A stretch of 64,000 nucleotides of DNA, taken from positions 1 through 64,000 of the forward strand of contig CBEUCH010000009.1 of NCBI GenBank assembly GCA_965541585.1, read 5' to 3'. This stretch comes from an uncultured bacterium. Its GTDB lineage: Bacteria; Zixibacteria; MSB-5A5; UBA10806. Position numbers and translations under genes: made by a program. Under the pieces are notes generated by a model. It worked only from the letters and a program-made list of their open reading frames with translations. It was not told the origin of the DNA and did no database searches. This document shows, in pieces, positions 36,834 to 61,203 of this stretch. Numbering within the stretch: the stretch's first letter is position 1; the number at the start of each line of letters is the position of its first letter.

Positions 36834-36857
36834 TATCTGGCTGGATTGGAGATAGAC

Positions 36858-37658: not shown

Positions 37659-37663
37659 GGCGG

Positions 37664-38827: not shown

Positions 38828-40333
38828 TTGTTTAAGAAGATCTTAATTGCTAACAGGGGAGAGATAGCGGTAAGAATTATCCGGGCCTGCCGCGATCTCG
38901 ATATCAGGTCGGTGGCTGTCTTCTCCGAGCCGGATAGAACTTCATTGCATGTTCGCCTGGCTGACGAAGCCTACCCGATCGGCCCCGCGCCGTCATCTGA
39001 ATCTTATCTTGTAATCGATAGAATTATCGAGACGGCTAAGAAGGCAAAGGCTGAGGCAATTCATCCCGGTTATGGTTTTCTGGCTGAGAATCCCTTGTTC
39101 GCCAGGGCCTGTGAGGACGCAGGGATTGTATTTATAGGCCCGCCTGCGACCTCGATAGAAATGATGGGCGATAAGATAGCCGCCCGCAAAGCCATGATCA
39201 AAGCCGGCGTGAAGGTGGTACCCGGAGTTGAAAAACCGATAAGCAGTGAAAAGGATGCTATGACCATGGCCGGTAATATCGGCTACCCCGTCCTGATCAA
39301 AGCCGCTGCCGGTGGTGGCGGCAAGGGGATGCGAATCGTTGACGATGATTCGGGGATAAAATCTGCGGTCAGGGGTGCAAAATCTGAGGCTAAATCTGCT
39401 TTCGGCGACGATAGAATCTATATCGAAAAATATCTCCCCCGGCCACGCCATATCGAAATTCAGATGATTGCCGATCTCCACGGAAATTACGTCTATCTCG
39501 GAGAGCGGGAATGCTCCATTCAGAGGCGTCATCAGAAGGTGATTGAGGAGGCCCCCAGCCCGCTTGTCGATGATGCCATGCGCCAGAAGATGGGGCAGGC
39601 TGCCATCGCTGCCGCAAAAGCCGCCGGATATACCAACGCCGGAACAGTCGAGTTTCTCGCCGACGATGACAGGAAGTTTTACTTTCTGGAGATGAATACT
39701 CGTCTGCAAGTGGAGCATCCGGTAACCGAACTTGTGACCGGACTCGATCTTGCCATAGAACAGATCCGCATCGCTACGGGGGAGAAGCTGTCATTTATGC
39801 AAGATGATATCGCGATCGAGGGTTATGCCATAGAATGCCGCATCTATGCCGAGGATCCGAGCGCCGGATTCTTACCTTCAAGCGGACTTCTGCGCTGTTA
39901 CCAGGAGCCGGCCGGCCCGGGTATAAGAGTCGATTCGGGAGTTTACGAGGGGGCCGAAATTTCAGTATATTACGATCCTATGATCTCCAAGCTGCTCTCT
40001 TACGGCAAGGACCGTGGTCAGGCCATCGGCCGCATGAAACGTGCCTTAAATGAATACCGGATATCGGGCGTAACCACCAATATAGAATTTCACAAAACCG
40101 TTCTGGATCATCCCGAATTCGTCGCCGGAAATTTATCTACTCATTTCATCGATGATTACTTCGAAGCTGCGGACGAGCAGCATCAAAAGACAGAGGAAAC
40201 ACTGGCGGTTGCAGCAGCCATGGTGGAGCATAACGCTCGCAACAAGCTCTCCGTTTCGAACATGAAGAAAACTCCCGTCTCCGCCTGGAAGACCTCCTGG
40301 CGTCCGGGCAACAGCGAGCCGGATGACTTATGA
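38828..40333 (+). CDS. accC: Biotin carboxylase subunit, probably of propionyl-CoA carboxylase given the neighbours
   Basis: ANRGEIA, HPGYGFLAEN, GGGGKGMR, ERECSIQRRHQK, EMNTRLQVEH. Confidence 0.9.
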   Translation: MFKKILIANRGEIAVRIIRACRDLDIRSVAVFSEPDRTSLHVRLADEAYPIGPAPSSESYLVIDRIIETAKKAKAEAIHPGYGFLAENPLFARACEDAGIVFIGPPATSIEMMGDKIAARKAMIKAGVKVVPGVEKPISSEKDAMTMAGNIGYPVLIKAAAGGGGKGMRIVDDDSGIKSAVRGAKSEAKSAFGDDRIYIEKYLPRPRHIEIQMIADLHGNYVYLGERECSIQRRHQKVIEEAPSPLVDDAMRQKMGQAAIAAAKAAGYTNAGTVEFLADDDRKFYFLEMNTRLQVEHPVTELVTGLDLAIEQIRIATGEKLSFMQDDIAIEGYAIECRIYAEDPSAGFLPSSGLLRCYQEPAGPGIRVDSGVYEGAEISVYYDPMISKLLSYGKDRGQAIGRMKRALNEYRISGVTTNIEFHKTVLDHPEFVAGNLSTHFIDDYFEAADEQHQKTEETLAVAAAMVEHNARNKLSVSNMKKTPVSAWKTSWRPGNSEPDDL

Positions 40334-40830
40334 AATACCAAGTCAAAATAGGCGAGAGAAAGTACGAGGTCGGCATCGACGGCGACGGGCCCGGTGTCAC
40401 CGTCAACGGCCGGCGTTTGAATGTCGATCTGAGAAGTCTCAAAGGCGGCAAGCTCCATTCCATTCTGGCCGATAACGAAAATTTCGAGTTCGAGCTGGAG
40501 CGCTCCAACGGTGGGTTCAATCTCTGGCACGGGAGAGGGCAGGTCTTCGTCGAGGTCACCGACGAGAAAACCGAACGGCTTAAAAGACTCATGGGCGGTG
40601 CCGAAACCGGCAGAAAACAGGCCGTCCTGAGAGCCGCCATGCCCGGCCTGGTGGTTAAAGTAGAGGTTGAACCGGGGCAGAGAATCATGAAGGGAGACGG
40701 CCTTTTAATCATCGAGGCCATGAAGATGGAAAACGAGATCAAAGCCCAGAGCCCCGGCGTGGTCAATGAGATCAAAGTCAAACCCGGCCAGCCAGTTGAG
40801 AAAAACCAGGTGCTGGTTGTGTTTGAATAA
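40330..40830 (+). CDS. Biotin carboxyl carrier protein
   Basis: EAMKME biotinylation motif. Confidence 0.92.
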   Translation: MKYQVKIGERKYEVGIDGDGPGVTVNGRRLNVDLRSLKGGKLHSILADNENFEFELERSNGGFNLWHGRGQVFVEVTDEKTERLKRLMGGAETGRKQAVLRAAMPGLVVKVEVEPGQRIMKGDGLLIIEAMKMENEIKAQSPGVVNEIKVKPGQPVEKNQVLVVFE

Positions 40831-40883
40831 ATATACTTTTCAATGTTGTAATATCTAACAGGAATGAGGAACCCGACAATTTT

Positions 40884-41441
40884 CTAAAAATCCAGATCTA
40901 TATTATCAGCTTTCTCGAAATTGAATGAATAATCATAGCCGTATAGCTGTATGCCTTTTCCGGAGACCATGTAGTAATCCAATAGATACGGCTCACCGTT
41001 CTCCGGCTTGAAGCGGATGCTGTCGAAATGGAAATCGTATTTTCCCTTTTCTGTTATCTCTCCCGCTACCGGATCTTTGATTAAGAGCCAGTAATGGCGT
41101 TTGTCGAATCTCAAAACCGCCATGTTGGCCTGGTCGGCTCGCCTCACGCCCATCCAGGTTCCCACCGGTCTGCGCGGCATGGGAGCCCTCTCGATTTCGG
41201 GAGATTCCCCCGGAACCTTCGGGACTGAGGCGGTTTGATAATCTCTGGTCGAGGCCCCGATATCCTCCAGATCCTCCTGAATATATCCGGAGAAGAGCTT
41301 CTGCCGCTCGATCATCTCTTGCTTCTGCTTCTCGAGTTTCGGCATCACTTTATCGTAACCCCTGTCGGTTACATAATTCATGGCCGCTAAGACTATTATA
41401 AAGGACGCCATCGACGCTATTAATATCCTGGGATTAAGCAT
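40884..41441 (-). CDS. Hypothetical membrane-anchored protein
   Basis: RBS AGGAG, N-terminal TM, aromatic-rich beta C-terminal domain. Confidence 0.65.
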   Translation of the reverse strand: MLNPRILIASMASFIIVLAAMNYVTDRGYDKVMPKLEKQKQEMIERQKLFSGYIQEDLEDIGASTRDYQTASVPKVPGESPEIERAPMPRRPVGTWMGVRRADQANMAVLRFDKRHYWLLIKDPVAGEITEKGKYDFHFDSIRFKPENGEPYLLDYYMVSGKGIQLYGYDYSFNFEKADNIDLDF

Positions 41442-41541
41442 ATTACTCTCCTGTATAGCTCTTTCTATATATATATATCGGTTTCCTGATATGGAAGGTT
41501 GAATTATAGGGTGTTTCGGCCAACTGGGACCGGACGGCGAT

Positions 41542-41829
41542 TTATCCCGGAATGCTAATGCTTTTTGCCATAATCAGTTCGGCGTCGCTGGGAAGCCTTA
41601 GAGGCTCCGCTGATTTGGTGAAAAAAGCCAGCCCCTTATGGCTTGAGATATATTTGTAGCTTGGTGACCAGAAACTCTTTAGTTTCATCACCACCAGCGG
41701 TTTTTCGGCCCTTCCGATGATTGTCAAAAAATCGCCGTTTTCCACCCGGACTATAGCCCCGGAGGCCTTTATGGCGTTGGCTATGGCTGCCGCAGCCGCG
41801 GCCCCTGCAATTACTGCCCCGTTGCTCAT
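41542..41829 (-). CDS. Hypothetical protein with Ala-rich N-terminus
   Basis: RBS GGAGGTGA before ATG 41829; AAAAAAIANAIKASGAIV. Confidence 0.7.
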   Translation of the reverse strand: MSNGAVIAGAAAAAAIANAIKASGAIVRVENGDFLTIIGRAEKPLVVMKLKSFWSPSYKYISSHKGLAFFTKSAEPLRLPSDAELIMAKSISIPG

Positions 41830-42014
41830 TCTGCTCACCTCCCGTAAGTACTCTTTTCGTATAATAATAACCGCAAAAATAGCAATTATTCAAGCGATTT
41901 GACCGGGCAAATTATTGCCTTTCAAGCAATTTCCGGAAACGAGCGGTTATCCCCGGCGCGGCAGATTTTCTATTCTTTATTTCCCTGTTTTTATTATATT
42001 ATCACTGCAGGGTA

Positions 42015-43601
42015 GTGCTGAATATGAAACAGAAAAAAACATCGTCCGGAATATCTACAAAGCGCATCTACAATAAATCTGATTCTGAAAATCGTGTGCA
42101 TCCGGAAGCCGATTCCGGCCAATATCCATTCACGCGGGGCATTTATCCCGAAATGTACCGTCAGAGGCTCTGGACCATGCGCCAGTATGCAGGCTATGGG
42201 ACGGCTAGGCAATCCAATGAACGTTATCGCTACCTGCTCTCGCAGGGTCAGACAGGCCTTTCAGTGGCCTTCGATCTGCCGACACAGATCGGCTACGATT
42301 CCGATCACGCGCTGGCCGCCGGGGAGGTCGGCAAAACAGGCGTGGCAATAGATTCGCTCGCTGATATGGAGATCCTGCTCGATAAGATTCCCTTAGATCA
42401 GGTCTCGACATCCATGACCATCAATGCCACCGCTTTTGTTCTCCTGGCACTGTACATTGCCGTTGCCAAAAAGCAGAATGTCCCCCTGGGCAAATTAAAG
42501 GGGACTATTCAGAACGATATTCTCAAGGAATATATTGCGCGCGGGACCTATATCTTCCCGCCCGAACCATCGCTTCGGCTCGTTACGGACATATTCAGAT
42601 TTTGTCAGGGCAGCATGCCGAACTGGAATACAATTTCAATTTCCGGTTATCATATCCGCGAGGCAGGGTCGACCGCCGCCCAGGAAGCGGCATTCACCCT
42701 TGCTGACGGTATCTGCTATGTGGAGCATGCTCTTAAGGCCGGTCTGGATATAGATGATTTCGCGCCCAGAGTTTCTTTCTTTTTCAATGCTCACAACGAT
42801 CTTTTCGAGGAGGTGGCAAAGTTCCGAGCCGCTCGATATGTCTGGGCCAAGATCATCAGGGAACGGTTCAAGGCCAGAGATGATCGTTCCTGTATGCTGC
42901 GTTTTCATACACAGACAGCGGGATCGACACTGACTGCACAACAACCCGAAAACAATATCGCCCGCGTCACTATCCAGGCTTTAGCCGCGGTTCTGGGCGG
43001 AACGCAGTCTTTGCATACCAATTCGATGGATGAGGCGCTGGCCTTACCCTCTGAAAAAAGCGCAACCATCGCCCTGCGCACTCAACAGATAATAGCGCAT
43101 GAGTCCATGGTCGGCGCTACAGTCGATCCTTTGGGCGGATCATATTATATTGAATATTTGACATCTGAGATGATAAAGAAAATCGAGGACTACCTCAGTG
43201 AGATTGATAAAATCGGCGGGGCGCTCAAGGCTGTCGAACAGGGGTATTTCCAGTTGGAAATACAGAAGGCCGCTTACGAATATCAGAAGGATGTCGAAAC
43301 GAAACGGCGAATAGTCGTTGGCGTTAACGATTTCACCGGAGAATCTGAGGATCCGCAAAACGTGCTCAAGGTGGACCCGCAACTGGAAAAAAGTCAGATC
43401 GGATTCACAAATTCAGTCAGAGAGAAAAGAGATTCTGTGCTGGCGGATAATCGGCTGAAAGAATTAAGAGAGGCGGCGCATTCGGAACAGAATATTATTC
43501 CCCTCGTAGTTAAATGTGTGGAGTCCATGGTAACACTGGGCGAGATCTGTGCAGTGCTTCGCGAGGTATGGGGCGAATATAAGGAGAACGTCGTATTATG
43601 A
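42015..43601 (+). CDS. Methylmalonyl-CoA mutase, large (substrate-binding) subunit of a split enzyme
   Basis: [14 protein letters not shown] (Tyr = methylmalonyl-CoA specificity), [18 protein letters not shown]; no B12-binding domain. Confidence 0.93.
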
Positions 43602-44011
43602 AGATACTCGGCCTGCATCATATAGGTATCGCCGTCGATGATCTAAAAAATTATTCATCGATCTTCGAAAAACTGTTTGGTCTGAAAACCGGGCCGGTGG
43701 AAACCAATCCGGAAAACCGGGCCAGCCTTTCATTTCTCGATATTCAAAACAGCAAGCTGGAGTTTATTGAACCCGTGGATGATGATTCTTCGATCGCCGG
43801 ATTCCTTTCGAAGCGCGGGCCGGGGATTCATCATCTCTGCCTTTTAGTTGATGATATTCAGGCAGCTATCGATGAGATGAAATCAAAGAATGTTAAGATG
43901 ATCGATGACAAGCCGCGCCAGGGTGCGGGCGGTTCTCTTATAGCATTTATCCATCCCGAATCAACCGGAGGGATATTGATAGAACTAAAACAGGAAAAAA
44001 CGGGGCATTAA
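43598..44011 (+). CDS. mce: Methylmalonyl-CoA epimerase
   Basis: [24 protein letters not shown]; coupled to the mutase. Confidence 0.92.
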
Positions 44012-46790: not shown

Positions 46791-47303
46791 TTATTTTGCA
46801 GGTGTAAGTTTAATAATCGGCTGACCAGGCTTTACCAGATCGCCCGGCCCGAAGTGAATGGATTTCACCTCCCCGTCGGTGGGCGATTTTATTTCGTTTT
46901 CCATCTTCATCGATTCCACAATCACCAGAGATTGTTTAGCCCTGACTTTTTCCCCTTGCTTTACCAGTACCTTGACCACCTTGCCGGGCATCGGAGTGCT
47001 GATTTCGTCCCCGGACACAAACTCCACGGCGGCTCCGGCGAAACTGTTCCTGTCGTCTTTTACCTTATCCAGCTTCACCGCCCGGCCACCGATATGGACA
47101 TAAAGGCTACTCTCGGATTCCGCTATGTAGGCGATAATGTTTTTGCCGTTGAATAGAATCGAGAAGCAATTCGGCGAAACGAGGGTAGCATTAAATCGAT
47201 ATTCCTTTTCTCCGGATGAGAATATAAAGCTATCGTCCTTGCCTTCATCTGCCTGGAAATTGATAGTATGTATGTTCCCGTTATGCGAAAACTCGAATTC
47301 CAT
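46791..47303 (-). CDS. Biotin carboxyl carrier subunit of a split methylcrotonyl-CoA carboxylase alpha chain
   Basis: ESMKME motif; operon context. Confidence 0.88.
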   Translation of the reverse strand: MEFEFSHNGNIHTINFQADEGKDDSFIFSSGEKEYRFNATLVSPNCFSILFNGKNIIAYIAESESSLYVHIGGRAVKLDKVKDDRNSFAGAAVEFVSGDEISTPMPGKVVKVLVKQGEKVRAKQSLVIVESMKMENEIKSPTDGEVKSIHFGPGDLVKPGQPIIKLTPAK

Positions 47304-47334
47304 CGTTAATTAATCCCGGATTATCGTGTTGATG

Positions 47335-48834
47335 TTACCCGCCTGCAATCTGCCAATCGCCCAGAGTTTGCCAAGGAGATGACATTTCCTCGGCTCTCGA
47401 TAGCGATACAGCCTTTCTGTCATTCGTGCCTGAATAAACGGCCGCCGCCATCAGAGCCTGGTTCACGATCTCTTCCCCTGAAGACGGTTTCCAGTCGGGC
47501 ATATGTTTTTGCAGAAAATCTGTATGAGTATTACCGGCTAAAAATTCCTTATGGTTTATAATATCCCTGAGAATTTCGATATCGGTCTTTATACCCAGGA
47601 TGGGAAAATCATTTAAAGCAGTAATCATTCTGCGGCAGCAAATGTCTCTGGTGGGCGCCCAGGCTATCAGCTTGGAGAGTATCGGGTCATAGAAGACTGA
47701 TACCTCGCAGCCCGTGAAAATGCCGCTATCATGGCGGATCCCCGGCCCCGACGGTTCCTTCATGAATAGTATCCTGCCGGCCGACGGTAGAAAATTGTTT
47801 TCGGGATCCTCGGCATAGATGCGGCATTCGATGGCATGGCCCTTCTGGCTGATCTCATCCCGGGAAAGCCAGAGCTTTTCTCCCGAGGCTATCCGCAATT
47901 GCGCATGAACCAGATCGACACCGCAAACCAGCTCGGTAACCGGATGCTCTACCTGCAGACGAGCGTTGACCTCCAGAAAGTAGAAATTCTTATTCTCATC
48001 CAACAGGAATTCGACCGTACCGGCGTTCGAATATCCCGATAGCTCGACAACCTTCAGAGCCGTTTCGCCCATTCTTTTTCTCAATTCGTCATCGAGAGCG
48101 GTGGACGGGCTTTCCTCGACTATCTTCTGATGCCTTCTCTGTATCGAACATTCTCTCTCAAAAAGATGAACAGAATTTCCGTGTTTGTCCGCCAGAATCT
48201 GAAATTCGACATGCCGGGGCCGTTCGATATATTTTTCGAGATATATGGATGGATCGCCGAATGCGGCTTTGGCCTCACGCATACCGGCCTCAACTGCGTT
48301 TATCAGTTTGCTCTTCGAGTTTATGACCCGCATTCCCTTGCCGCCGCCGCCTGCCGATGCTTTCAGCAATACCGGAAATCCGATTTTTTGCGCCTCGGCC
48401 AGGCATTCGTTCGGATCGGTGCTTTTCTTCTTCATGCCCGGAATTAGCGGGATACCGGCCTTTCCGGTGATCGCCCGGGAGGCAACTTTATCCCCCACCA
48501 GTTTCAGGGCCCTTGAGTCGGGGCCGACGAAGACGATGCCTTCCTTTTCGCAGCGCTCGGCAAAACGATAATTCTCTGCAAGAAAGCCATATCCGGGGTG
48601 TATAGCTTCCGCCCCGGTTTCTTTAGCAGCCGCAATAACGGCATCAAAATTCAAATAGCTATCCTGGGGTGGCGCCTCGCCTATGCAGACCGCCTCGTCT
48701 GCCATCTGAACATGCAAGGAGTTTCTGTCTATGGTAGAATAAACGGCAACGGAATCGATTCCCAATTCTCTGCAGGCACGTATTATTCTAACGGCTATTT
48801 CGCCGCGATTAGCTATCAGGACTTTCTTGAACAT
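47335..48834 (-). CDS. Biotin carboxylase (methylcrotonyl-CoA carboxylase alpha, LiuD/MccA-like)
   Basis: ANRGEIA, HPGYGFLAEN, ERECSIQRRHQK; operon with MccB. Confidence 0.88.
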   Translation of the reverse strand: MFKKVLIANRGEIAVRIIRACRELGIDSVAVYSTIDRNSLHVQMADEAVCIGEAPPQDSYLNFDAVIAAAKETGAEAIHPGYGFLAENYRFAERCEKEGIVFVGPDSRALKLVGDKVASRAITGKAGIPLIPGMKKKSTDPNECLAEAQKIGFPVLLKASAGGGGKGMRVINSKSKLINAVEAGMREAKAAFGDPSIYLEKYIERPRHVEFQILADKHGNSVHLFERECSIQRRHQKIVEESPSTALDDELRKRMGETALKVVELSGYSNAGTVEFLLDENKNFYFLEVNARLQVEHPVTELVCGVDLVHAQLRIASGEKLWLSRDEISQKGHAIECRIYAEDPENNFLPSAGRILFMKEPSGPGIRHDSGIFTGCEVSVFYDPILSKLIAWAPTRDICCRRMITALNDFPILGIKTDIEILRDIINHKEFLAGNTHTDFLQKHMPDWKPSSGEEIVNQALMAAAVYSGTNDRKAVSLSRAEEMSSPWQTLGDWQIAGG

Positions 48835-48897
48835 TTTTTAAAGAATCTTTCTGTCCGCCGGGTCTCCGTACCTGTTGGTAAAGTCACGTTTCTTAGT

Positions 48898-49025
48898 TGT
48901 CGGCAGACCCCGCGTTTCGCGGGGCGGACCTACATTTTCGCCAGTTTATTTGTCAGGTTTTTCTCTCGCTTCGCTCATTCGGAACCCGACCTACATTTTG
49001 TCCGCGAGTCAGGGCTTGCCCTGAC
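48898..49025 (-). repeat. Cluster of GTAGGTC-type REP-like hairpins inside the operon
   Basis: Minus-strand TGTAGGTCCGCCCCGCG-AAA-CGCGGGGTCTGCCGACA (48898-48934), TGTAGGTCGGGTT...AACCTGACA (48951-48995), and GTCAGGGC-TT-GCCCTGAC (49008-49025). Confidence 0.7.
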
Positions 49026-49033
49026 CGCCTTTA

Positions 49034-49831
49034 TCAATCCTCATACCAATTAGGTTTACGTTTTTCAAAAAAGGCTTTTATCCCTTCCTGGCCCTCGTCG
49101 CCCATTCTAAGTTTGGCTATGATCTCGGCAGTGTAATTTCCGACCTCGGATTCGGGCATCGTGGGCACATTCAAAAGTAACTGTTTGCACCAGGATAAAG
49201 CTTTCGGGCCGCTGGATAATAACTGTTGCACTCTCGTTTCCACTGCTTCATCTAGCTTCCCATCGCGTACGACCTCGTTGACAAGACCGGCGGCTCTCGC
49301 TTTTTCAGCAGTAAGCCTCTCGCCCGTCAGAAAATACTCCCTGCAATTCTTATCTCCCATGCGCCGGATTATGTAGGGGGAGATACAGGCCGGAATAAGT
49401 CCCAGCTTGACCTCGCTCAAACTGAAAACGGCCTTTTCTGAGGCAATGACAAGATCGCAGACCGCCACCAGACCACAACCGCCACCGATGGCAGCGCCAT
49501 TGACTCGTGCAATCGTTGGCAGCGGACAGCTAAACATAAGATGAAACATATCCGCCAGATTTTTGGAGTCCTCCAGGTTTTCCTCATAAGTGTAATCGAG
49601 AACATCCTTCATCCAGTGCAGATCGGCGCCGGCGCAGAATGTTGATCCATCGCCAGTCAATACCACGACTCTCAGATCGTCTCGAGAGTTTATTTCCTTA
49701 AACAGATCCGCTAACTCGGATATCATAACATTGTTGAAGGCATTTCTCACATCCGGGCGGCTCAAGGTTATCCATGCGACCCGTTTTCGGATTTCTACCT
49801 TCAGGGTTTTATAATCGTTGGATAACGCCAT
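49034..49831 (-). CDS. Enoyl-CoA hydratase family, methylglutaconyl-CoA hydratase (LiuC-like)
   Basis: FCAGADL, AIGGGCGLVAVCD, SEVKLGLIPACISPY; adjacent to MccB. Confidence 0.85.
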   Translation of the reverse strand: MALSNDYKTLKVEIRKRVAWITLSRPDVRNAFNNVMISELADLFKEINSRDDLRVVVLTGDGSTFCAGADLHWMKDVLDYTYEENLEDSKNLADMFHLMFSCPLPTIARVNGAAIGGGCGLVAVCDLVIASEKAVFSLSEVKLGLIPACISPYIIRRMGDKNCREYFLTGERLTAEKARAAGLVNEVVRDGKLDEAVETRVQQLLSSGPKALSWCKQLLLNVPTMPESEVGNYTAEIIAKLRMGDEGQEGIKAFFEKRKPNWYED

Positions 49832-49852
49832 AACGCTTACTTGATTCCGAAC

Positions 49853-51460
49853 CTACATCCTGAATACGCCGTACCGCTGATCGGGGATGGGAGCGTTTAA
49901 CGATAATGAAATGGCCAGCCCCAGAACGGTGCGTGTGTCGAGCGGATCAATAATACCGTCGTCCCAGACCCGGGCCGTGCTGAAATAGGGAGAGCCCTCT
50001 TGTTCATATTTTTCCAGTATGGGAGCCAGAAACTCTTTTTCTTCGTTCTTCGTCATCGATTTACCATCGGCTTCGAGACCTTTCTTCTTTACCATTAGAA
50101 GGACGTTGGCTGCCTGCTCGCCTCCCATGACGCTTATTTTGGCGCTTGGCCACATCCAGAGGAAACGCGGCTCGTAGCCTCTGCCGCACATGGCATAATT
50201 CCCGGCGCCGTATGAGCCGCCGATTATAATCGTGAATTTCGGGACGTCGGCGTTAGCTACGGCATGCACCATCTTAGCGCCATTGCGAGCGATGCCACCA
50301 TGCTCATAATCCTTGCCGACGATAAAACCGGTGATGTTCTGCAGGAATAACAGGGGGATCTTTCTCATTGTGCAAAGCTCGATAAAATGTGCGCCTTTAA
50401 CAGCGCTTTCCGAAAATAAAACACCGTTATTGCCGAGTATTCCCACCAGGTAGCCCATGATGCGCGCGAAACCGCAGACTAACGTCTGCCCATAAAGTTC
50501 TTTGAATTCATGAAACTCACTGTTATCGACGATGCGGGCTATGATCTCCCTGATCTCAAACTGCTTTCTAATATCTCTCGAAACAATGCCGTAGAGTTCA
50601 GCCGGATCATACTTTGGGTCAACAGGCTCGTTTCGCCCGAGATCGAACTTTCGAGGCTTATCGAGACACTGAATGATATTCCTCGTTATCTGCAGCGCAT
50701 GCTTGTCGTTTTGTGCGTAATGATCGGCCACACCGGATATACGACAATGAACATCAGCTCCTCCGAGTTCCTCGGCAGTGACATCGGCACCGGTTGCCGC
50801 CTTGACCAGGGGAGGGCCACCGATAAAGATCGTTCCCTGTTTGCGTACTATAACCGCTTCGTCGCTCATGGCCGGGACATAGGCCCCTCCGGCCGTGCAT
50901 GACCCCATTACAACCGCTATCTGCGGAATGCCTTGGGCGGATAGTCGGGCTTGATTGTAAAAAATGCTTCCGAAATGCCCTTTATCGGGAAAGACGTCCT
51001 TCTGATGAGGCAGGAATACGCCTCCCGAATCAACCAGATAAACGCATGGCAGCCGATTCCGCAAGGCGATCTCCTGGGCCCGGGTATGCTTTTTGATTGT
51101 CATCGGGAGATAGGTTCCGCCCTTGACCGTGGCATCATTGGCCACCACCAGCACTTCTCTGCCATTAACCACTCCCACGCCTGTTATAACGCCGGCAGAG
51201 GGAGCCTCGTTGTCATACATATCGAGAGCCGCCAACCCGGAGAATTCCAGGAATGGCGTATTTTTGTCGAATAGGTTTTTTATTCTATCCCGGGTCAGGA
51301 GTTTATTTCTCTTAAGATGTTTCTGGCGCGCCTTCTCAGGCCCACCCTTATATATCTCGGCCAGGCGTTCCTTGAGTAAGGCAACCCCTTTTTCCATATG
51401 CTTGCTGTTTTTCCGGAACTCTTCGCTCTTGGTATCGACCGTCGACTCTATCTGAAACAC
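49853..51460 (-). CDS. mccB: 3-methylcrotonyl-CoA carboxylase beta (carboxyltransferase) subunit
   Basis: [43 protein letters not shown]-terminal YGVFRM. Confidence 0.9.
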
Positions 51461-51489
51461 AAAACGTCCCTGTTACGCAATACGATTAC

Positions 51490-51879
51490 TTAAGCCGGAA
51501 CACATTTATATCCATAATTGAGAATGCCACCATGGCCCTCCTGCTGTATCCTGCGGAATTCGATCTTAACCGGCAATCCGATCTTCATATCCTCCGGCTC
51601 ACAATCCACTACCTGGCAGAGGATCTTCACGTCATCGCCGACATTTACAATGGCAACCGCATAAGGAGACTGATCCGTAAACTGGCTGGGGGCAACCCTG
51701 ATAATCGTGAATGCCTCGACCTTACCCTTATCTCCTATTTGTGTTTCATCAAACTCTCGCGACTTGCATGCAGGACAGATCTGCCTTGGAGGGAACAACA
51801 CCTTGCCGCATTTCTTGCATTTTACAGCCTCGAGACGATATCTTTGAGGCATCTCTCTCCAGTATCTCGGCCCCGACAT
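51490..51879 (-). CDS. DUF35 Zn-ribbon/OB-fold protein (thiolase-HMG-CoA synthase scaffold)
   Basis: RYWRE..QRYRL, CKKC..FPPR..CPAC, OB fold; follows the thiolase by 1 nt. Confidence 0.9.
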   Translation of the reverse strand: MSGPRYWREMPQRYRLEAVKCKKCGKVLFPPRQICPACKSREFDETQIGDKGKVEAFTIIRVAPSQFTDQSPYAVAIVNVGDDVKILCQVVDCEPEDMKIGLPVKIEFRRIQQEGHGGILNYGYKCVPA

Positions 51880-51880
51880 T

Positions 51881-53041
51881 TTACACTCCCTCCAGAATAT
51901 GGACTACGCTGCTGGCGCCGCTTCCGCCCATGTTCTGTGCCAATCCGATATCGGCTTTTTTCAATTGTCGGCCGTTATCGGCCTCACCACGAATCTGCTT
52001 GGTAAGCTCTACTATCTGTGCCACTCCGGTAGCGCCTACAGGATGTCCTTTTGATTTCAATCCGCCGCTGGCATTAATCGGAATATCACCGTCCAGCGCC
52101 GTTTTACCGTCGGCCGTGGCGGGGCCGCCTTTGCCCCTGTCTGCAAATCCCAGAGCTTCTATCACCATAATCTCGGCGATTGTGAAACAATCATGAACCT
52201 CGGCAAAATCTATATCCGATGTTTTCTTGCCGGCCATTTTGAGAGCCTCTTCCGCCGCCACCGCGGTTGATTTCAGAAAGGATAGATCCTCACGGTGAGC
52301 AAGCTGAATGGTATCTGATGCATGTCCGGAACCGGTGATTTTTACCAGGCGTTTTTTAGTTAGTTTTTTGGCCTTGTCCATGGAACATAGAATAACCGCG
52401 GCCGAACCGTCGGTGATGGGAGAGCAATCCAGGAGAGTAAGTGGATCAGAAACCATAACTGCATTCTTAACCTGATCGGCTGTTACTTTCATTCTGTATT
52501 GTGCCAGCGGATTCATAGATCCGTTATGATGGTTCTTAACGGCCACCTGCGCCAGGTGATCTCGCGTGGTGCCGTATTTATTCATATGGTGATTAGCCAT
52601 CATTGCATACAGCCCGGGAAACGTCACCCCGTTGTAAACCTCGTATTCCTGTTCGGCGGCCGTGGCCAGGGCAAACGTCGCTTTGCCGCCATCGACATCG
52701 GTCATTTTTTCCACGCCGGTGACCATCACTGTATCGGCCATACCGGATGCCACGTGCATATATCCGGTTCTGAACGCCAGTCCGCCGGAAGCGCAGGCCG
52801 ATTCGATCCTGATACCCGGAGTCGGGCAGAGGCCCGCCATGTCGGGCCCCATGGAACCCAGATGTTCCTGATCGCAGAAAAGCCCCGATGACATACAGCC
52901 TATATACATGGCATCGACCTTGTCTATTCCTGCATCATCGAGAGCCAGAAGAGCGCTTTCGACCAGTAGATCGCGGATAGAATATTCCCAGATCTCGCCC
53001 CATTTGTTCATACCAATACCGATTACCGCGACTTCTCTCAT
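51881..53041 (-). CDS. Archaeal-type (SCP2-like) acetoacetyl-CoA thiolase
   Basis: [32 protein letters not shown]. Confidence 0.9.
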
Positions 53042-53077
53042 CTATATTCCTCCGGGAATCCCATTCATCAATAATCC

Positions 53078-54130
53078 TTACTCACCCCTCATCCTGATTT
53101 TGCCCCGGTACTTGGAATAGGTGCCGTAATCAAGATATTTTCTGTTGTCCGATTCCAGCATGTCCCTGGTCTTCGCCGCCTTGTCCTGCACCTCTTTTAT
53201 CCGGTCGGTCACCTTCCAGATAAAACCATCGCTACCGGCCCCGGAGCCATAGGAGACCATGAAGACCCAATCTCCCGGCCTGGCGACATCGAGTATCGCC
53301 GTAAGGCCCATGGGCGACGAGCCCGAATATGTATTGCCCAGAAGCGGACATAACCATCCGGTTTCTATCTGCTCTTTTGTGAAACCGAGTTTCTTGCCGA
53401 CGGTCATGGGGAATTTGCCATTCGGCTGGTGGAAGACCGCATAAGCAAAATCCTCGGGCTTCATGCCGGATTTATCCAATATCGCCCTGGCGCAGCCCGT
53501 GATGTGTTTAAAATAGGCCGGCTCTCCCGTGAAACGGGAGGCATGGCTGGGATAAAACTGATGTTCGCGTCGCCAGAAATCGGGTGTGTCAGTCATGAAT
53601 GAATGAGTGTAATGACACTCTGCGATAATATTCTCTTTGCCGAATATGAACGATGCCGCCCCCGCCGATGCGGAGTACTCCAGGGCATCACCGGGCGCTC
53701 CCTGCGAAGTATCTGCGCCGACACCGACTCCATACTCTATCTCACCGGCCTTAACCAGGCTCATGGCCACGAACATGCCCTCTGACCCGGCTTTGCAGGC
53801 GAATTCGAAATCGGCGCAATGGCAATCCGGGACCGCTCCGATAGCCTCCGCCAGGGTCGTTCCGCTCGGCTTGACCGCATACGGATGTGATTCCGAACCG
53901 ATATATACAGCGCCGATCTTCCGGGGATCGATGCCTGCACGCTTGATAGCGTGCCTGGTAGCCTCTACGGACATGGTTATCGTGTCCTGGTCCGGACCCG
54001 GAACAGATTTTTCCTGGAGCATCAAACCTCTTTTGTAGCTGGGGGCATCGGCGCCCCAGACCTTGGCGATCTCCTCGACTTTGATCCTGTTTCGTGGTAT
54101 GTATGCACCGTAACCAATTATTCCCGCCAT
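53078..54130 (-). CDS. Archaeal-type hydroxymethylglutaryl-CoA synthase
   Basis: GSESHPYAVKP, EFACKAG (catalytic Cys), TDTPDFWRR, FHQPNGKFP, GNTYSG, SYGSGAGSD. Confidence 0.93.
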   Translation of the reverse strand: MAGIIGYGAYIPRNRIKVEEIAKVWGADAPSYKRGLMLQEKSVPGPDQDTITMSVEATRHAIKRAGIDPRKIGAVYIGSESHPYAVKPSGTTLAEAIGAVPDCHCADFEFACKAGSEGMFVAMSLVKAGEIEYGVGVGADTSQGAPGDALEYSASAGAASFIFGKENIIAECHYTHSFMTDTPDFWRREHQFYPSHASRFTGEPAYFKHITGCARAILDKSGMKPEDFAYAVFHQPNGKFPMTVGKKLGFTKEQIETGWLCPLLGNTYSGSSPMGLTAILDVARPGDWVFMVSYGSGAGSDGFIWKVTDRIKEVQDKAAKTRDMLESDNRKYLDYGTYSKYRGKIRMRGE

Positions 54131-54194: not shown

Positions 54195-54223
54195 AATCTA
54201 AGATTTGGGTATCTTAATGTCAA
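54195..54223 (-). promoter_or_regulatory. Sigma-70-type promoter of the HMG-CoA synthase operon
   Basis: Minus strand TTGACA-17 nt-TAGATT. Confidence 0.55.
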
Positions 54224-55468: not shown

Positions 55469-55517
55469 AGGTGGGATTAGCAGTTTAAAAGAAGATTTGG
55501 CTGGTAGGGATATTTGT

Positions 55518-55856
55518 ATGGATGTAAGTCGATACGTGAGACCTTTTAGAAAAATATATTATTACTTAACTATCTTCACTTTTTGTATGCTTTTTTTAAC
55601 TGGATTAGTGACCTTGATATCAAATAGTATGGAAAGTTGGGTTGATTTTATAGATGCTATGGTTTTAACGCCTCTCACTGCCGGATTCCATTTGTTACTT
55701 ATCATGATTCTGTTGAGTATTGCCGGTATTATTATCGATTGGGCTCGGAAACTAAGATATTTTCTAATTATAATCGGATGCCTTACCTCAATGGTTTTTC
55801 TATTTTTGTATTCAGTATTTTTTTATTTTTTAAATGTAGGCGGATTTTATCAATAG
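55518..55856 (+). CDS. AT-rich hypothetical 3-TM membrane protein
   Basis: Three hydrophobic helices; composition differs from the neighbours. Confidence 0.55.
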   Translation: MDVSRYVRPFRKIYYYLTIFTFCMLFLTGLVTLISNSMESWVDFIDAMVLTPLTAGFHLLLIMILLSIAGIIIDWARKLRYFLIIIGCLTSMVFLFLYSVFFYFLNVGGFYQ

Positions 55857-55929: not shown

Positions 55930-57114
55930 ATGGCTGGTGAAGCGGTAATATTATCGGCATGCAGATCGGCGGTCGGGAATTTTTTAGGCGGGCTGTCATC
56001 TTTTACCGCGCCGCAGCTGGGCGCATTGGCTATAAAGGAGGCAGTCAGACGGGCCGGCATCAATGTCGACGATATAGACGAGGTCATCATGGGGCAGGTG
56101 GTCCAGGGTGGCTCCAATCAGGCCCCCGGCCGCCAGGCGGCGGTTCATGGCGGCATACCGCCGACGGTTCCAGCCATGACCATCAATAAAGTCTGCGGCT
56201 CCGGTCTTAAGGCAGTGATGCTGTCGGCCCAGGCTATCAAGGCCGGGGACGGTCATCTGTTTGTCGCCGGAGGGCAGGAATCCATGTCCAATACCCCGTA
56301 TGCTCTTCATGGCGCCAGGGGAGGCTTGAAGTTCGGCCATAAAAAGCTGGTCGATCTCATGATCACCGACGGCCTCTGGGATTCGTTTAACGATTTCCAC
56401 ATGGGCGTCGCCGCCGAGTACACCGCCGAGAAATCAAAGTTGACACGCGAGGAACTCGACGAGTACGCCTTCAACTCACAGATGAAAGCCTCCAGGGCTG
56501 TCGAGGAAGGTAAGCTCGAGGCGGAGATTTTCCCCATTGAGATACCACAGCGAAAGGGCGACCCGATAATTTTCGATACGGACGAGGCTCCCAGGGCTGA
56601 AACCACCGTGGAGAAACTTGCCAAACTGAAACCAGCATTTCAAAAAGATGGAGTTGTTACTGCAGGCAATGCGCCTGGGCTAAACGATGGCTCAGCTGCC
56701 GTGGTGGTGTCGTCACTTGAATACGCTGAAGAAAAAGGTCATAAACCTTTGGCCAGAATCATCGCCTACGCCGCCGCCGGCACCGATCCCAGGGATCTGT
56801 TCTACGCGCCGATCTATGCAGTTCAAAAACTGATGAACAAGATGGGCGTCGATATCAACCACTGGGATTTAATCGAAGCTAACGAGGCCTTTGCGGCCCA
56901 GGCGATGGCCGACGGTAGAGAACTCGGCTGGGATTGGTCGCGGGTCAATGTCAACGGCGGAGCCATCGCGCTGGGACATCCCATCGGGGCCACCGGGGCC
57001 AAGATCCTTGCGACGCTAATCTACGCCCTAAAGGACCGCGATCTTAAGAAAGGGATGGTGACCCTCTGTCTCGGTGGCGGAAATGCCGTGGCCATGGCGA
57101 TTGAGATGATGTAA
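55930..57114 (+). CDS. atoB: Acetyl-CoA C-acetyltransferase (bacterial thiolase)
   Basis: [27 protein letters not shown]. Confidence 0.9.
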
Positions 57115-57225
57115 TATAGATGATGTTGTTTGATGTTGTCAAAGTGAGCTGTCGGGTCCCCGCACTCGACAGCCGTCCAGTAACGTGTCACAGTTCATTG
57201 TGAACGCATGCGAGGGAGGAATTTT

Positions 57226-57972
57226 ATGAAGGCAATGATCAATTTCATTTTGATTTCGATAATTTCTTTGATATTGGCCGGTTGCACCAAGAGCGGCACT
57301 CCTCCCGAGAGAACCGCCACCTCTACTTTTCCCCTTACAACTGACAGCAGATGGCATTATCAGGCTTACATGTACGATGTACCTTTCAATGATCCCTCGC
57401 TCGCCAATACAGTCCGGCGGGACATTATTAGATATGTTATAGGGCCGGATACTCTCTTGAATCTGCCCGAACTGGTTGCTGTCGAAGATACTATCATAAA
57501 CGAAAGCAGGATAGTCATCGATACTTTGATAATCAGGCGCTGGCAGGGAATCGATGAGCAAAGACTGAAAGAATACGCTTACTCATTCGTGGTCGATTCG
57601 GATCCGGATCCATATCTTTATGATATTCCACATATCATTCTGGATTTCCCGCTGTCCGCCGGTAAAGAATGGATTGCTTATTCATGGGATTTCGGCGTCG
57701 CCAACAGCGCCGTCGTGGGTGCCGAGCGGATAGATGTAGAATACGGCTCGTTTATTTGTGACGTACTTCTGACACGCGTCATCAATGGTTTTGAGCAAGA
57801 TGCCGATACACTTTCAGTCACTTACGAGTGGTTTTCTAATGACGGCTTGATTCGAAAAGAAATTGACTATGGGATTCGGGAAATACTTGATAAAGGTGGC
57901 ACTGTTCTGGATTCGGCCAGAATTATTGAAACCTGGGAATTGATAGATATGGAGATTCAAAACGATGGATAG
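57226..57972 (+). CDS. Hypothetical lipoprotein inserted between thiolase and hbd
   Basis: RBS GGAGGA; lipobox LAGC. Confidence 0.75.
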   Translation: MKAMINFILISIISLILAGCTKSGTPPERTATSTFPLTTDSRWHYQAYMYDVPFNDPSLANTVRRDIIRYVIGPDTLLNLPELVAVEDTIINESRIVIDTLIIRRWQGIDEQRLKEYAYSFVVDSDPDPYLYDIPHIILDFPLSAGKEWIAYSWDFGVANSAVVGAERIDVEYGSFICDVLLTRVINGFEQDADTLSVTYEWFSNDGLIRKEIDYGIREILDKGGTVLDSARIIETWELIDMEIQNDG

Positions 57973-58010
57973 ATTCTGGATTAATAAAAGAAAGAAAAGT
58001 GGAAAGTGAT

Positions 58011-58865
58011 ATGCAAATCAAACAAATCGCAGTAATCGGCGGCGGCACCATGGGCAACGGTATCGCCCATGTCTTCGCCCAGAATGGATACGAAACCCTT
58101 CTTGTCGACACCGAACAGGAATTCCTCGACAGGGCTTTGGGCGCTATTAAGAAGAACCTCGAACGCCAGGCTAAAAAAGGCGCCATCGGCCCCGAGGATA
58201 TCTCATCGACCATGGGACGGATCAAGCCGACTATAAAACTGGATGAGGCCCGGATTGCCGATATCGTTATAGAGGCCGTCTTCGAAGATCCCCATGAAAA
58301 AGGTGAAATATTCGAAGAGCTTGATTCGATCTGTAAACCGGAAACGATTTTTGCGTCGAATACATCCTCGTTGCCTATAACGGCGTTGGCCGCTGATACC
58401 AAACGACCTGATAAGTTTATCGGTATGCATTTTATGAATCCGGTTCCGGTTATGAAACTGGTGGAGATCATTCGCGGGCTTGCCACTTCCGATGAGACCT
58501 GCGAAACAATCAAGGATCTGGCTGTCAAGTTAGGAAAAACTCCTGTGGAGGTTAACGACTATCCCGGTTTCATCTCAAATCGCGTCTTGATGCCGATGAT
58601 AAACGAGGCTATATACTGTTTGATGGAGGGCGTGGCCACCGCAGAGGATATTGATACGGTTATGAAATTGGGCATGAATCATCCCATGGGACCTCTGACC
58701 CTGGCCGACTTCATCGGTCTGGATGTCTGTCTGGATATCATGGAGGTCTTGCATGAGGGTTATTCCGATTCCAAATACCGTCCCTGCCCGCTTCTCAAAA
58801 AGATGGTGCAGGCGGAGTATCTCGGCCGGAAATCGGGGCGTGGTTTTTATGTTTATGAAAAATGA
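58011..58865 (+). CDS. hbd: 3-hydroxybutyryl-CoA dehydrogenase
   Basis: GGGTMGNGIA, ASNTSS, GMHFMNPVPVM, HPMGPL. Confidence 0.93.
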   Translation: MQIKQIAVIGGGTMGNGIAHVFAQNGYETLLVDTEQEFLDRALGAIKKNLERQAKKGAIGPEDISSTMGRIKPTIKLDEARIADIVIEAVFEDPHEKGEIFEELDSICKPETIFASNTSSLPITALAADTKRPDKFIGMHFMNPVPVMKLVEIIRGLATSDETCETIKDLAVKLGKTPVEVNDYPGFISNRVLMPMINEAIYCLMEGVATAEDIDTVMKLGMNHPMGPLTLADFIGLDVCLDIMEVLHEGYSDSKYRPCPLLKKMVQAEYLGRKSGRGFYVYEK

Positions 58866-58898
58866 ATTGTCTTTTTGAATATAATTAGAGGTGGCGCG

Positions 58899-60044
58899 AT
58901 GGAATTTGAATTGGGTGAAGATCAGAAACTGATGCAGGGGGCGGCCAGGGAGTTTGCCGAGAAGAAGCTGATGCCGATCGCCGAGAAAATGGACGAGGAC
59001 GAAGCGGTTCCTGCTGAAATCTATAAAGAACTCGGTGAACTCGGATATTTCGGTATGCTTCTCCCGGAGAAATATGGGGGTCTCGATTTGGATACGCTCT
59101 CCTACGTCTGCGCCATGGAGGAGTTGGCCAGAGGATCGGCCGGGGTCATGATCGGTCTTTCGGTTCATAATTCGCTCTGCTGCAGCGCCGTATATGACTG
59201 GGGCTCCGATTACCTCAAGGAAAAGTACCTTCCGGGTATGGCCTCCGGCGAGCTATTCGGGTCTTATTGCCTTTCCGAGCCCGGCTCCGGCACTGATGCC
59301 GGCTCTCTTCAATGCACGGCGGATGAGAAAAACGATAAATTCGTTTTAAACGGGACCAAATCGTGGATCACCTCTGCGGGCGTGGCCAGGGTTTTTATCG
59401 TCTTCGCATTGACAGATAAGGCGGCCGGGCCGAATGGGATTTCCTGTTTTGTCGTGGATAGAGATACACCCGGATTGAACCTGGGCGCTAAAGAGAAGAA
59501 GATGGGGATCAAACCGTCCGACACACGCGAGGTTTCTTTCATCGACTGCGAAGTGCCAAAAGAGAACTTAATCGGCGAGAAAAATAATGGGTTCAAAGTT
59601 GCCCTTTCGCTTCTCGATGGCGGCCGGATAGGTGTCGCCGCCCAGGGAGTCGGTATCGCTCAGGCGTCTTTCGAAGAAGCTTATAAATATGCTCACGAGC
59701 GGGAGCAGTTCAACCAGCCTATCGCCAATTTCCAGACCATCCAGTTCAAGCTTGCAGATATGGCCATGAGGATAGAGGCGGCCCGGCTTCTGACCTATTC
59801 CGGGGCCTGGAAGAAAGATCGCCCGGGGCGTGATACAGCCAGGTACATTTCCATGGCGAAATTGTTCGCATCGGAAACCGCCAACTGGGTGGCCAATCAG
59901 GCGGTGCAGATACATGGCGGCTACGGATATGTAAAAGAGTACGCGGTCGAACGGTATTTCCGGGACGCGCGCGTAACCGAGATCTATGAGGGAACATCGG
60001 AAGCGCAGCGAATGGTTATATTCAGAAGCCTGGGGAAGAAATAG
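58899..60044 (+). CDS. Acyl-CoA dehydrogenase (short/branched chain)
   Basis: LSEPGSGTDA, LDGGRIG, QIHGGYGY, IYEGTSE. Confidence 0.93.
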   Translation: MEFELGEDQKLMQGAAREFAEKKLMPIAEKMDEDEAVPAEIYKELGELGYFGMLLPEKYGGLDLDTLSYVCAMEELARGSAGVMIGLSVHNSLCCSAVYDWGSDYLKEKYLPGMASGELFGSYCLSEPGSGTDAGSLQCTADEKNDKFVLNGTKSWITSAGVARVFIVFALTDKAAGPNGISCFVVDRDTPGLNLGAKEKKMGIKPSDTREVSFIDCEVPKENLIGEKNNGFKVALSLLDGGRIGVAAQGVGIAQASFEEAYKYAHEREQFNQPIANFQTIQFKLADMAMRIEAARLLTYSGAWKKDRPGRDTARYISMAKLFASETANWVANQAVQIHGGYGYVKEYAVERYFRDARVTEIYEGTSEAQRMVIFRSLGKK

Positions 60045-60045
60045 A

Positions 60046-61203
60046 ATGTGGACCAGCGACAAGCATGAAAAATATAGGGCCCTGGTCAGAGAGTTCGCCG
60101 AAAGCGAAATCGGGCCGATAACGCAGAAAATGGACCGTGATCAGATCTTCCCCAAGGAACTGGTGAAGAAACTCTGTGATTTCGGTCTCCTCGGTATGGT
60201 GGTGGATAAAAAATACGGCGGAACCGAGATCGATATGATGACTTATATTATCGCCGTGGAGGAGGTTTCCCGGGTTTGCGGTTCAACCGGTATTACACTC
60301 GCGGCCCACAATTCCCTGGGCTGCTGGCCTATATTTGTCTTCGGCACCGAGGACCAGAAGGAGAAATATCTCCCTGAGATTACAACCGGCGGTAAGCTCG
60401 CCGCCTTCGGGTTGACAGAGCCGGAGGCTGGATCTGACGCCGGCGGCACCAGGACATTTGCGGAAAAAGTCGATGGCGGTTTCAAGGTCAACGGCACCAA
60501 GTGCTGGATCACCAATGCCGGTGTTGCCTCCACATTCATCTTTACAGCCAAGACTTCGCAGGAACCGGGCGTTCATTCTATATCGTCTTTCGTTATAAAG
60601 GCGGATGCCAAGGGCTTTTCTTCGGGCAAAAAAGAAAATAAAATGGGTCTTCGCGGCTCCGATACATGTTTTCTTCATTTTGACGATTGTTTCGTGCCGG
60701 ATGATGATTTACTGGGCCAGCAGGGGGAGGGATTCAAGCAATTCATGAAAACTCTCGATGGCGGCCGGATTTCTATTGGGGCAATGGCGCTCGGCTTGGC
60801 ACAGGGTGCCTATGATGTTGCCGTCCGCTATGCGAAAGAAAGAAAGCAATTCGGTAAACCGATAGCGGATTTCCAGGCGGTCGGTAACAAATTGGCCGAT
60901 ATGGCCACACAGATTCAAGCCGCCCGCCACCTGGTCTACCATGCCTCCTATCTAAAGGACGAAGGCAAACATCGCTATACCAAAGAATCGGCCATGGCCA
61001 AACTTTACGCTTCCGAGGTCGGTAATAGGGTAACTTATGATGCCATCCAGATCCTTGGCGCCGAGGGTTTCGGAGATAGATATCCTGTGGAGAGAATGTA
61101 CCGCGATGTCAAGCTTTGCGAGATAGGGGAGGGAACTTCCGAGATACAGAGGATAGTTATATGCAGACAGTTGTTGAAGGAGATCGAGCAGGGAGAAAAA
61201 TGA
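60046..61203 (+). CDS. Acyl-CoA dehydrogenase (short/branched chain), second paralogue
   Basis: GLTEPEAGSDA, LDGGRISIG, EIGEGTSEIQR. Confidence 0.93.
   Translation: MWTSDKHEKYRALVREFAESEIGPITQKMDRDQIFPKELVKKLCDFGLLGMVVDKKYGGTEIDMMTYIIAVEEVSRVCGSTGITLAAHNSLGCWPIFVFGTEDQKEKYLPEITTGGKLAAFGLTEPEAGSDAGGTRTFAEKVDGGFKVNGTKCWITNAGVASTFIFTAKTSQEPGVHSISSFVIKADAKGFSSGKKENKMGLRGSDTCFLHFDDCFVPDDDLLGQQGEGFKQFMKTLDGGRISIGAMALGLAQGAYDVAVRYAKERKQFGKPIADFQAVGNKLADMATQIQAARHLVYHASYLKDEGKHRYTKESAMAKLYASEVGNRVTYDAIQILGAEGFGDRYPVERMYRDVKLCEIGEGTSEIQRIVICRQLLKEIEQGEK

Follow-up and report, generated by a model that had tools for sequence, protein, structure and literature searches.

A reversed archaeal-type HMG-CoA synthase complex as the possible end of leucine breakdown in uncultured Zixibacteria

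What use does a bacterium have for a complex known for making 3-hydroxy-3-methylglutaryl-CoA (abbreviated HMG-CoA) when its genome shows neither the reductase that would draw on this compound nor the lyase that would cleave it? The question is raised by a seven-gene run in an uncultured bacterium (GTDB lineage Bacteria; Zixibacteria; MSB-5A5; UBA10806), located within positions 1 to 64,000 of the forward strand of contig CBEUCH010000009.1 (NCBI GenBank assembly GCA_965541585.1), a stretch of 64,000 nucleotides hereafter called the window. Here an HMG-CoA synthase, a thiolase and a DUF35 protein of archaeal type (the trio) share one run with a methylcrotonyl-CoA carboxylase (MCC) and a probable hydratase. 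A first-pass annotation of the sequence had offered two readings, an anabolic route from acetyl-CoA to isovaleryl-CoA and a hub through which carbon from both acetate and leucine would enter mevalonate isoprenoid synthesis. The distribution of the trio, and of the genes found in its place, favours a third option absent from that annotation, in which the trio would be a reverse-running substitute for HMG-CoA lyase. We give a probability of roughly 0.55 to the reading that the operon carries out lyase-free breakdown of leucine and isovaleryl-CoA, the reversed trio replacing lyase, CoA-transferase and thiolase.

The seven open reading frames (ORFs) lie on the minus strand at the coordinates first assigned to them, with intergenic gaps of 36, 1, 29, 21, 199 and 31 nt; in minus-strand order they are:

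53078..54130, minus strand: archaeal-type HMG-CoA synthase, 350 amino acids, E80/C112/H234/N237 intact
51881..53041, minus strand: archaeal/SCP2-type acetoacetyl-CoA thiolase, 386 amino acids, assigned from intact motifs and PDB matches
51490..51879, minus strand: DUF35 scaffold, 129 amino acids, a zinc ribbon with two CxxC plus an OB fold
49853..51460, minus strand: MccB, MCC beta-type carboxyltransferase, 535 amino acids, assigned from PDB scores
49034..49831, minus strand: crotonase, likely 3-methylglutaconyl-CoA hydratase, the LiuC role suggested by position
47335..48834, minus strand: biotin carboxylase (N-terminal part of MCC alpha), 499 amino acids, assigned from domain matches
46791..47303, minus strand: biotin carrier subunit BCCP, 170 amino acids, MKM at 132

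The synthase scores above the cut-offs of two equivalog models for archaeal HMG-CoA synthase, TIGR00748 (524 bits against a cut-off of 353) and NF003274, and falls below the cut-off of the MvaS-type model TIGR01835 (101 bits, cut-off 360). In the PDB it matches 6ESQ best (E 3e-141), and the named homologues that share 80-82% identity with it come from Zixibacteria. The thiolase keeps SACASG at 81, HDCF at 283 and GHP at 332, with 7YVY and 6ESQ as best PDB matches, and the DUF35 protein matches PF12172 and PF01796, its best PDB match being 6ESQ_E (E 4e-34). All three subunits therefore match chains of the archaeal thiolase/HMG-CoA synthase/DUF35 complex (6ESQ, as described in the accessible parts of PMC12960953 and PMC11522927), each as best or second-best PDB match and with the E-C-H-N tetrad, the CxS/HDxF/GHx motifs and the zinc ribbon intact, in agreement with the first-pass identification of the module. 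In the accessible part of PMC12960953, the tetrad and the thiolase motifs separate true synthase complexes from the PhlABC/MucABC type; those acetyltransferases likewise put the three-protein scaffold to bacterial use outside the mevalonate pathway, but they have lost the tetrad and the HDxF motif, both of which are kept here. Likeness to 6ESQ and gene adjacency together suggest that the trio forms a physical complex with a shared CoA site. Unlike its archaeal counterpart, this trio is joined to MCC and a hydratase in a genome without a recognised mevalonate pathway, its proposed net direction is reversed, and the synthase has clade-specific residues: H104, E117, P241 and S272 each occur in 85 or 86 of 86 bacterial alignment rows, and these positions differ in all four Methanobrevibacter rows.

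MccB scores E 1e-190 to 1e-221 against named MCC beta chains in the PDB and 1e-82 or weaker against most chains named propionyl-CoA carboxylase (PCC); the top row, 9TPS, carries the depositor's label PCC, yet its score falls in the MCC group. The protein first named methylglutaconyl-CoA hydratase is a crotonase for which position suggests the hydratase role, no NCBIfam model exceeding its cut-off; it is 41-47% identical to hydratases that adjoin lyases in relatives.

Searches of the whole genome (98.17% complete) recovered neither HMG-CoA reductase nor HMG-CoA lyase, so the absence first remarked on at the locus extends well beyond it. Two HMGL-like matches were rejected as lyases, one being a LeuA/homocitrate-synthase-like protein and the other OadA-like. 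AtuA was not found in the genome, nor was a CitE-fold protein over the cut-off, nor were CoA-transferases of family I (PF01144), family III or the PF02550 type, and none of the three full-length AMP-ligases scanned is an acetoacetate-CoA ligase (a fourth, a contig-end fragment, lay outside the scan). Because reductase, lyase and AtuA were not found, the only recognised ways out for HMG-CoA here are the hydratase, run backwards, and the synthase.

In the pathway that we favour, leucine would be converted by IlvE to 2-oxoisocaproate, by a VorB-type 2-oxoacid:ferredoxin oxidoreductase (VOR) or a fused 2-oxoacid dehydrogenase E1 to isovaleryl-CoA, by a nearby acyl-CoA dehydrogenase to methylcrotonyl-CoA, by MCC to methylglutaconyl-CoA and by the hydratase to HMG-CoA. 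The synthase would then split HMG-CoA into acetoacetyl-CoA and an acetyl-enzyme, with the partner thiolase pulling the cleavage by thiolysis, to leave three acetyl-CoA or, if the acetyl-enzyme were hydrolysed, two acetyl-CoA and acetate. One complex would take the place of three enzymes, and no free acetoacetate would need re-activation. The same complex could also run forward in genomes in which a reductase drains HMG-CoA, because the coupled step would lie near equilibrium. A more specific version, which we advance tentatively and at less than even odds, is that in vivo the synthase is a CoA-dependent cleaver channelled through DUF35 to the thiolase, turning leucine-derived HMG-CoA into three acetyl-CoA with one thioester more than the lyase route in many uncultured phyla, AtuA being a third, acetate-releasing solution.

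HMG-CoA synthase is irreversible by the textbook. For the Staphylococcus enzyme, a 'backwards' reaction that gives acetoacetyl-CoA plus acetate is reported, and some anaerobes operate citrate synthase in the reverse direction: in the reversed oxidative tricarboxylic acid cycle this condensing enzyme, also thought irreversible, is driven backwards by CoA supply and coupling. Citrate synthase belongs to a different enzyme family, and here the pull is proposed to come from a channelled thiolase. The accessible Table S5 of PMC7264872 gives eQuilibrator values of +26.1 ± 1.7 kJ/mol for the thiolase and -16.9 ± 15.8 kJ/mol for the synthase, and the accessible part of PMC10562921 gives +25.2 kJ/mol for the thiolase. 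From the Table S5 values we compute a forward sum of +9 ± 16 kJ/mol, in which the total CoA concentration cancels, so that the reaction HMG-CoA + 2 CoA -> 3 acetyl-CoA is plausible and reversal is not barred.

The run is real, conserved and no artefact. Among 41 close genomes, 36 contain the synthase and 38 contain MccB, and the synthase recurs at 80-96% identity in 12 of the 13 other genomes of the family. Of 35 relative loci whose layouts we read by eye, 22 continue from the trio into MccB within the run (17 with all seven genes), 7 reach a contig edge first and 6 are otherwise arranged: the canonical trio is split in three of them, one has a divergent trio, and in two the trio faces a lyase-bearing liu cluster. 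The pattern that the first-pass annotation had named as refuting, with the two halves unlinked in relatives and both a conventional lyase-based leucine pathway and an independent mevalonate pathway present, is not what these genomes show. We extended the comparison across phyla with the best 80 of 598 confirmed synthase loci from a scan that covered part of the species-genome set; contig ends truncate many of these loci, there is some overlap with the close relatives, and record titles, which name Aminicenantes, Acidobacteriota, Ignavibacteria, Eisenbacteria, Glassbacteria, WOR-3/Stahlbacteria, Cloacimonadota and Planctomycetota, may be wrong. An MCC-type carboxyltransferase is present in 27 of the 80 and AtuA in 9, and neither lyase, ScoAB nor reductase occurs in any of them within up to 9 kb. 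In four (L096, L097, L142 and L155) the trio is followed by a distant carboxyltransferase of 580 amino acids, about equally far from MCC beta and glutaconyl-CoA decarboxylase alpha, together with biotin carboxylase, BCCP and hydratase, and in two of these four also with an acyl-CoA dehydrogenase. At E 1e-60 a plasmid collection yielded no match to the synthase. A functional link between the trio and the MCC half is well supported by the conserved gene order, by its recurrence in several phyla and by coupling to more than one carboxylase lineage.

To what, then, does the trio give way where it is missing? In 201 genomes of the phylum with at least 90% completeness, synthase was found in 165, lyase homologues in 31 and AtuA in 51. 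The lyase homologues were divided after viewing into 8 with at least 46% identity to the lyase of one relative, G032 (classical, LiuE-type), and 23 at 35-41% (distant); seven of the 8 classical lyases adjoin MCC, and the eighth, in G075, was outside that look. The synthase-negative genomes number 36, 16 of them counted as such from their absence among the listed matches. Eleven of the 36 also lack MccB, and these have no AtuA and no classical lyase, although two carry the distant type; four reflect contig breaks, the trio thiolase still standing on the MccB contig; and 21 have MccB and no trio. Among these 21, AtuA is present in 16 (directly upstream of MccB in 14), a classical lyase in 3, a distant lyase in 1 and none of these in 1, G174, which is assembled in 440 contigs. 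By comparison, 113 of the 169 trio genomes have neither AtuA nor a classical or distant lyase. What replaces the trio is thus a cleaving enzyme, known in one case and putative in the other; this suggests that the MCC cassette is catabolic and that the trio, where it stands alone, is the cleaving step.

Four layouts recur: trio-MCC, trio-AtuA-MCC, AtuA-MCC and MCC-lyase, the last with ScoAB next in two genomes. In the 41 close genomes, family I CoA-transferases were found only in the five that have a lyase in the MCC cluster, and in G032 and G058 a ScoAB pair directly follows the lyase; a weak PF01144 pair in G027 and G036 is unlinked to the operon and was given no role. The operon resembles the Pseudomonas liuABCDE cluster (accessible part of PMC9636800) in containing MccB, a likely hydratase and MCC alpha, in the order that the lyase-bearing relatives also show, and differs from that cluster in having the trio in place of the LiuE lyase and an acetoacetate CoA-transferase, MCC alpha split into biotin carboxylase and BCCP, and the dehydrogenase outside the run. 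In a quick MccB tree of 58 rows, AtuA-only and trio-plus-AtuA cassettes are interleaved in one clade (98% support in the Shimodaira–Hasegawa-like approximate likelihood ratio test), a pattern that fits repeated loss of the trio after gain of AtuA. Lyase-linked MccBs form a separate clade, which includes an Eisenbacteria cassette with the trio after BCCP, where liuE sits elsewhere.

The putative substitute is exemplified by the gene of relative G030:

L047:10266-12137, minus strand: AtuA (PF07287) of G030, a gene immediately upstream of MccB in the majority of AtuA genomes viewed

We tentatively regard AtuA as a candidate acetate-releasing HMG-CoA lyase. Such a reaction would give acetoacetyl-CoA directly, which fits G030, where no family I CoA-transferase was found. 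The ESM Atlas returned the family name of AtuA and nothing more. Lyase homologues of about 305-309 amino acids in trio genomes are away from MCC in all eight loci viewed, and five of the eight adjoin a gene of about 400 amino acids (a family III CoA-transferase where scanned); we counted these homologues separately, and they may yet be HMG-CoA lyases. At L062 (in G019), L061 and L064, a distant HMG-CoA-lyase-family gene occurs with a family III CoA-transferase and LeuC/D-like genes, and the L062 cluster also includes ROK and phosphoenolpyruvate-mutase/isocitrate-lyase-like genes; clusters of this type likely encode an itaconate/citramalate-type pathway.

Several observations weigh against a reversed trio. 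We infer every direction of flux from gene identities, motifs, order, absences and distribution, and the synthase tetrad is the same as in forward-working methanogen enzymes. The free-energy uncertainty spans -7 to +25 kJ/mol, a modest barrier included. The exclusion between trio and lyase is one-sided, because AtuA or a lyase accompanies the trio in 56 of the 169 trio genomes (35 with AtuA, in many cases within one gene run with the trio, 5 with a classical and 19 with a distant lyase), which implies redundancy, regulation or another, forward role. The distant lyase homologue that was tested passes the NCBIfam HMG-CoA lyase cut-off, the trio of G027 and G036 faces a lyase-bearing liu cluster, and four classical-lyase genomes (G031, seen at locus L038, and G057, G075 and G134) also hold a divergent synthase of about 55% identity; its tetrad positions are intact in G031, and the divergent trio is unlinked to MCC in the one of the four that was viewed. 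Because the genomes are related to one another, their counts are not independent, and a Fisher test on them is given no weight here; MccB presence was established for part of the 169 trio genomes; the MccB tree was a quick one; and the synthase threshold of E 1e-60 would miss an MvaS-type enzyme in the 16 AtuA-only genomes, for which no such search was made. As for AtuA, PMC4847356 names it for the lyase activity and PMC4097962 gives that activity to LiuE. Finally, a stand-alone citryl-CoA lyase in this genome could be a hidden HMG-CoA lyase, and an anabolic route could operate under leucine scarcity.

That anabolic route, the first-pass annotation's first option, would lead from three acetyl-CoA through HMG-CoA and methylglutaconyl-CoA to methylcrotonyl-CoA, with MCC reversed, and on to isovaleryl-CoA, supplying iso-fatty-acid primers or, by reductive carboxylation, leucine. 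We consider it unlikely. It has a precedent in the Myxococcus MvaS/LiuC route (accessible part of PMC9636800), forward-working enzymes carry these same synthase and thiolase motifs, a lyase would work against such a route and none was found in this genome, and the genome encodes FabH and a cluster for type II fatty acid synthesis, with IlvD absent and VOR nearby. The myxobacterial isovaleryl-CoA pathway (MvaS, LiuC, AibAB, AibC) likewise pairs an HMG-CoA synthase with a hydratase of LiuC type, whereas here the synthase is archaeal-type rather than MvaS, no AibAB-fold gene was found and an ATP-dependent MCC is present instead. AibAB has the family I CoA-transferase fold, for which the genome search was negative, and the two medium-chain dehydrogenases noted, both unlinked, lie in a benzoyl-CoA cluster in one case and are PIG3-like in the other, in a comparison made without an AibC reference. 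An anabolic trio would leave unexplained the lyase or putative lyase in 20 of the 21 trio-less MccB genomes and the presence of AtuA in trio gene runs, and leucine can be turned into isovaleryl-CoA more directly, by IlvE with VOR or the fused E1. The first-pass annotation had expected a lack of leuABCD to favour this option; the check does not discriminate, as LeuB (over its equivalog cut-off), LeuC/D homologues (C1:123315-127262) and a LeuA-like gene are present, and IlvD was found in none of the 41 close genomes, lyase-bearing ones included.

It seems rather improbable to us that an unrecognised lyase, such as the citryl-CoA lyase, ends leucine breakdown while the trio works forward for acetoacetate or another HMG-CoA-derived product. 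Of five relatives tested, the trio genomes G003 and G026 share the citryl-CoA lyase-family gene, it was not found in G030 or G032, and a match in the lyase-bearing G040 (with an internal stop) speaks against the idea; some genomes do keep trio and lyase together. The gene is unlinked to the operon, a second succinate-CoA-ligase-like pair could supply it with citryl-CoA, and the free acetoacetate released would need re-activation, for which no CoA-transferase or acetoacetate ligase was found. The mevalonate hub, in which acetate and leucine carbon would both enter isoprenoid synthesis through HMG-CoA, has in our judgement only a very slim chance. A reductase does occur in 14 of the 41 relatives, as a protein of about 770 amino acids in the four loci inspected (L072, L073, L074 and L075), and five reductase genomes have no DXR match; several of the relatives with loci of this kind also have DXR. 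In G015 (L073:8158-13479) a reductase-GHMP kinase fusion adjoins a diphosphomevalonate decarboxylase and a flavin mononucleotide-dependent IDI-2-like gene. As the four inspected reductase clusters hold no synthase gene and some reductase genomes lack DXR, the trio there likely runs forward. For the genome studied here the hub is nonetheless refuted, barring a non-homologous HMG-CoA reductase or genes within the missing 2% of the genome: reductase, mevalonate kinases and decarboxylase were not found, the sole GHMP kinase is IspE, and DXR is present. The reductase is also missing from all 13 other genomes of the family, 12 of which have the synthase. A mevalonate role survives as a side role in reductase-bearing relatives.

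Two non-coding features belong to the run itself:

54195..54223, minus strand: sigma70-like promoter candidate, TTGACA-17-TAGATT, tied for best score in the region
48835..49033, no strand assigned: 199-nt spacer with low-copy palindromic repeats, recognised by folding against shuffles and by genome matches

The promoter candidate (54223-54195) lies about 65 nt upstream of the synthase gene, in keeping with the one promoter proposed at first. The region contains 11 promoter-like sites against 10.6 expected by chance, no excess, which leaves a single transcript presumptive, and a terminator scan of the region gave nothing above chance. The spacer, described earlier as filled with repetitive extragenic palindromic elements, fits that description roughly: it folds better than 200 of 200 shuffles (z -3.15) and has five short matches (33-47 nt) elsewhere in the genome. 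In several relatives passenger genes are inserted at this hydratase-biotin carboxylase junction, and passengers also occur at the synthase-thiolase junction. Related ORFs of about 200 amino acids (56-87% identical), one of which matches the IS200-like Y1 transposase family PF01797, stand between DUF35 and MccB in five relatives:

L018:6789-7370, L019:5717-6370, L022:5741-6364, L023:5818-6408 and L040:4367-4975: inserted ORFs of about 200 amino acids, DUF35-MccB junction

The surroundings of the operon form a branched-chain amino acid catabolic cluster, which speaks for the reversed reading together with the lack of IlvD in all 41 close genomes, owing to which these amino acids are probably imported:

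35751..38200, plus strand: VOR, three subunits, likely isovaleryl-CoA source
38828..44011, plus strand: second biotin carboxylase/BCCP pair, methylmalonyl-CoA mutase and epimerase, presumably the valine/isoleucine/propionyl-CoA branch
55930..61203, plus strand: canonical thiolase, 254-amino-acid ORF, 3-hydroxybutyryl-CoA dehydrogenase (HCDH) and two acyl-CoA dehydrogenases

The two acyl-CoA dehydrogenases, about 4.7 kb from the operon, match no specific model over its cut-off, and one of them is a candidate isovaleryl-CoA dehydrogenase. Cluster ORFs at 57208-57972 (plus strand), 55497-55856 (plus strand) and 40884-41441 (minus strand) had no Pfam match at E 0.01. IlvE lies just outside the window and the fused E1 elsewhere in the genome, which also encodes IlvC and an acetolactate synthase (C2:26424-27461 and C4:110578-112242). 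A bzd-type benzoyl-CoA reductase cluster (C1:395949-406624) points to anaerobic aromatic degradation. The stand-alone citryl-CoA lyase lies at C3:108880-109686; with the second succinate-CoA-ligase-like pair (C7:146625-149177) it possibly forms a two-step citrate cleavage.

The operon's proteins all come from known families, and the novelty lies in their wiring and in the direction proposed. A literature search, with subscription journals mostly outside its scope, found no paper describing the operon. If the trio does run in reverse, widespread uncultured bacteria would finish leucine breakdown by an undescribed route, and HMG-CoA synthase would become, after citrate synthase, the second 'irreversible' condensing enzyme that is physiologically reversible. 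The version yielding three acetyl-CoA would save the energy of acetoacetate re-activation, and an ADP-forming acetate-CoA ligase-like gene present in this genome could recover the energy. AtuA would gain a testable function, acetate-releasing HMG-CoA cleavage, and the presence in bacteria of an HMG-CoA synthase of archaeal type would not be evidence of a mevalonate pathway.

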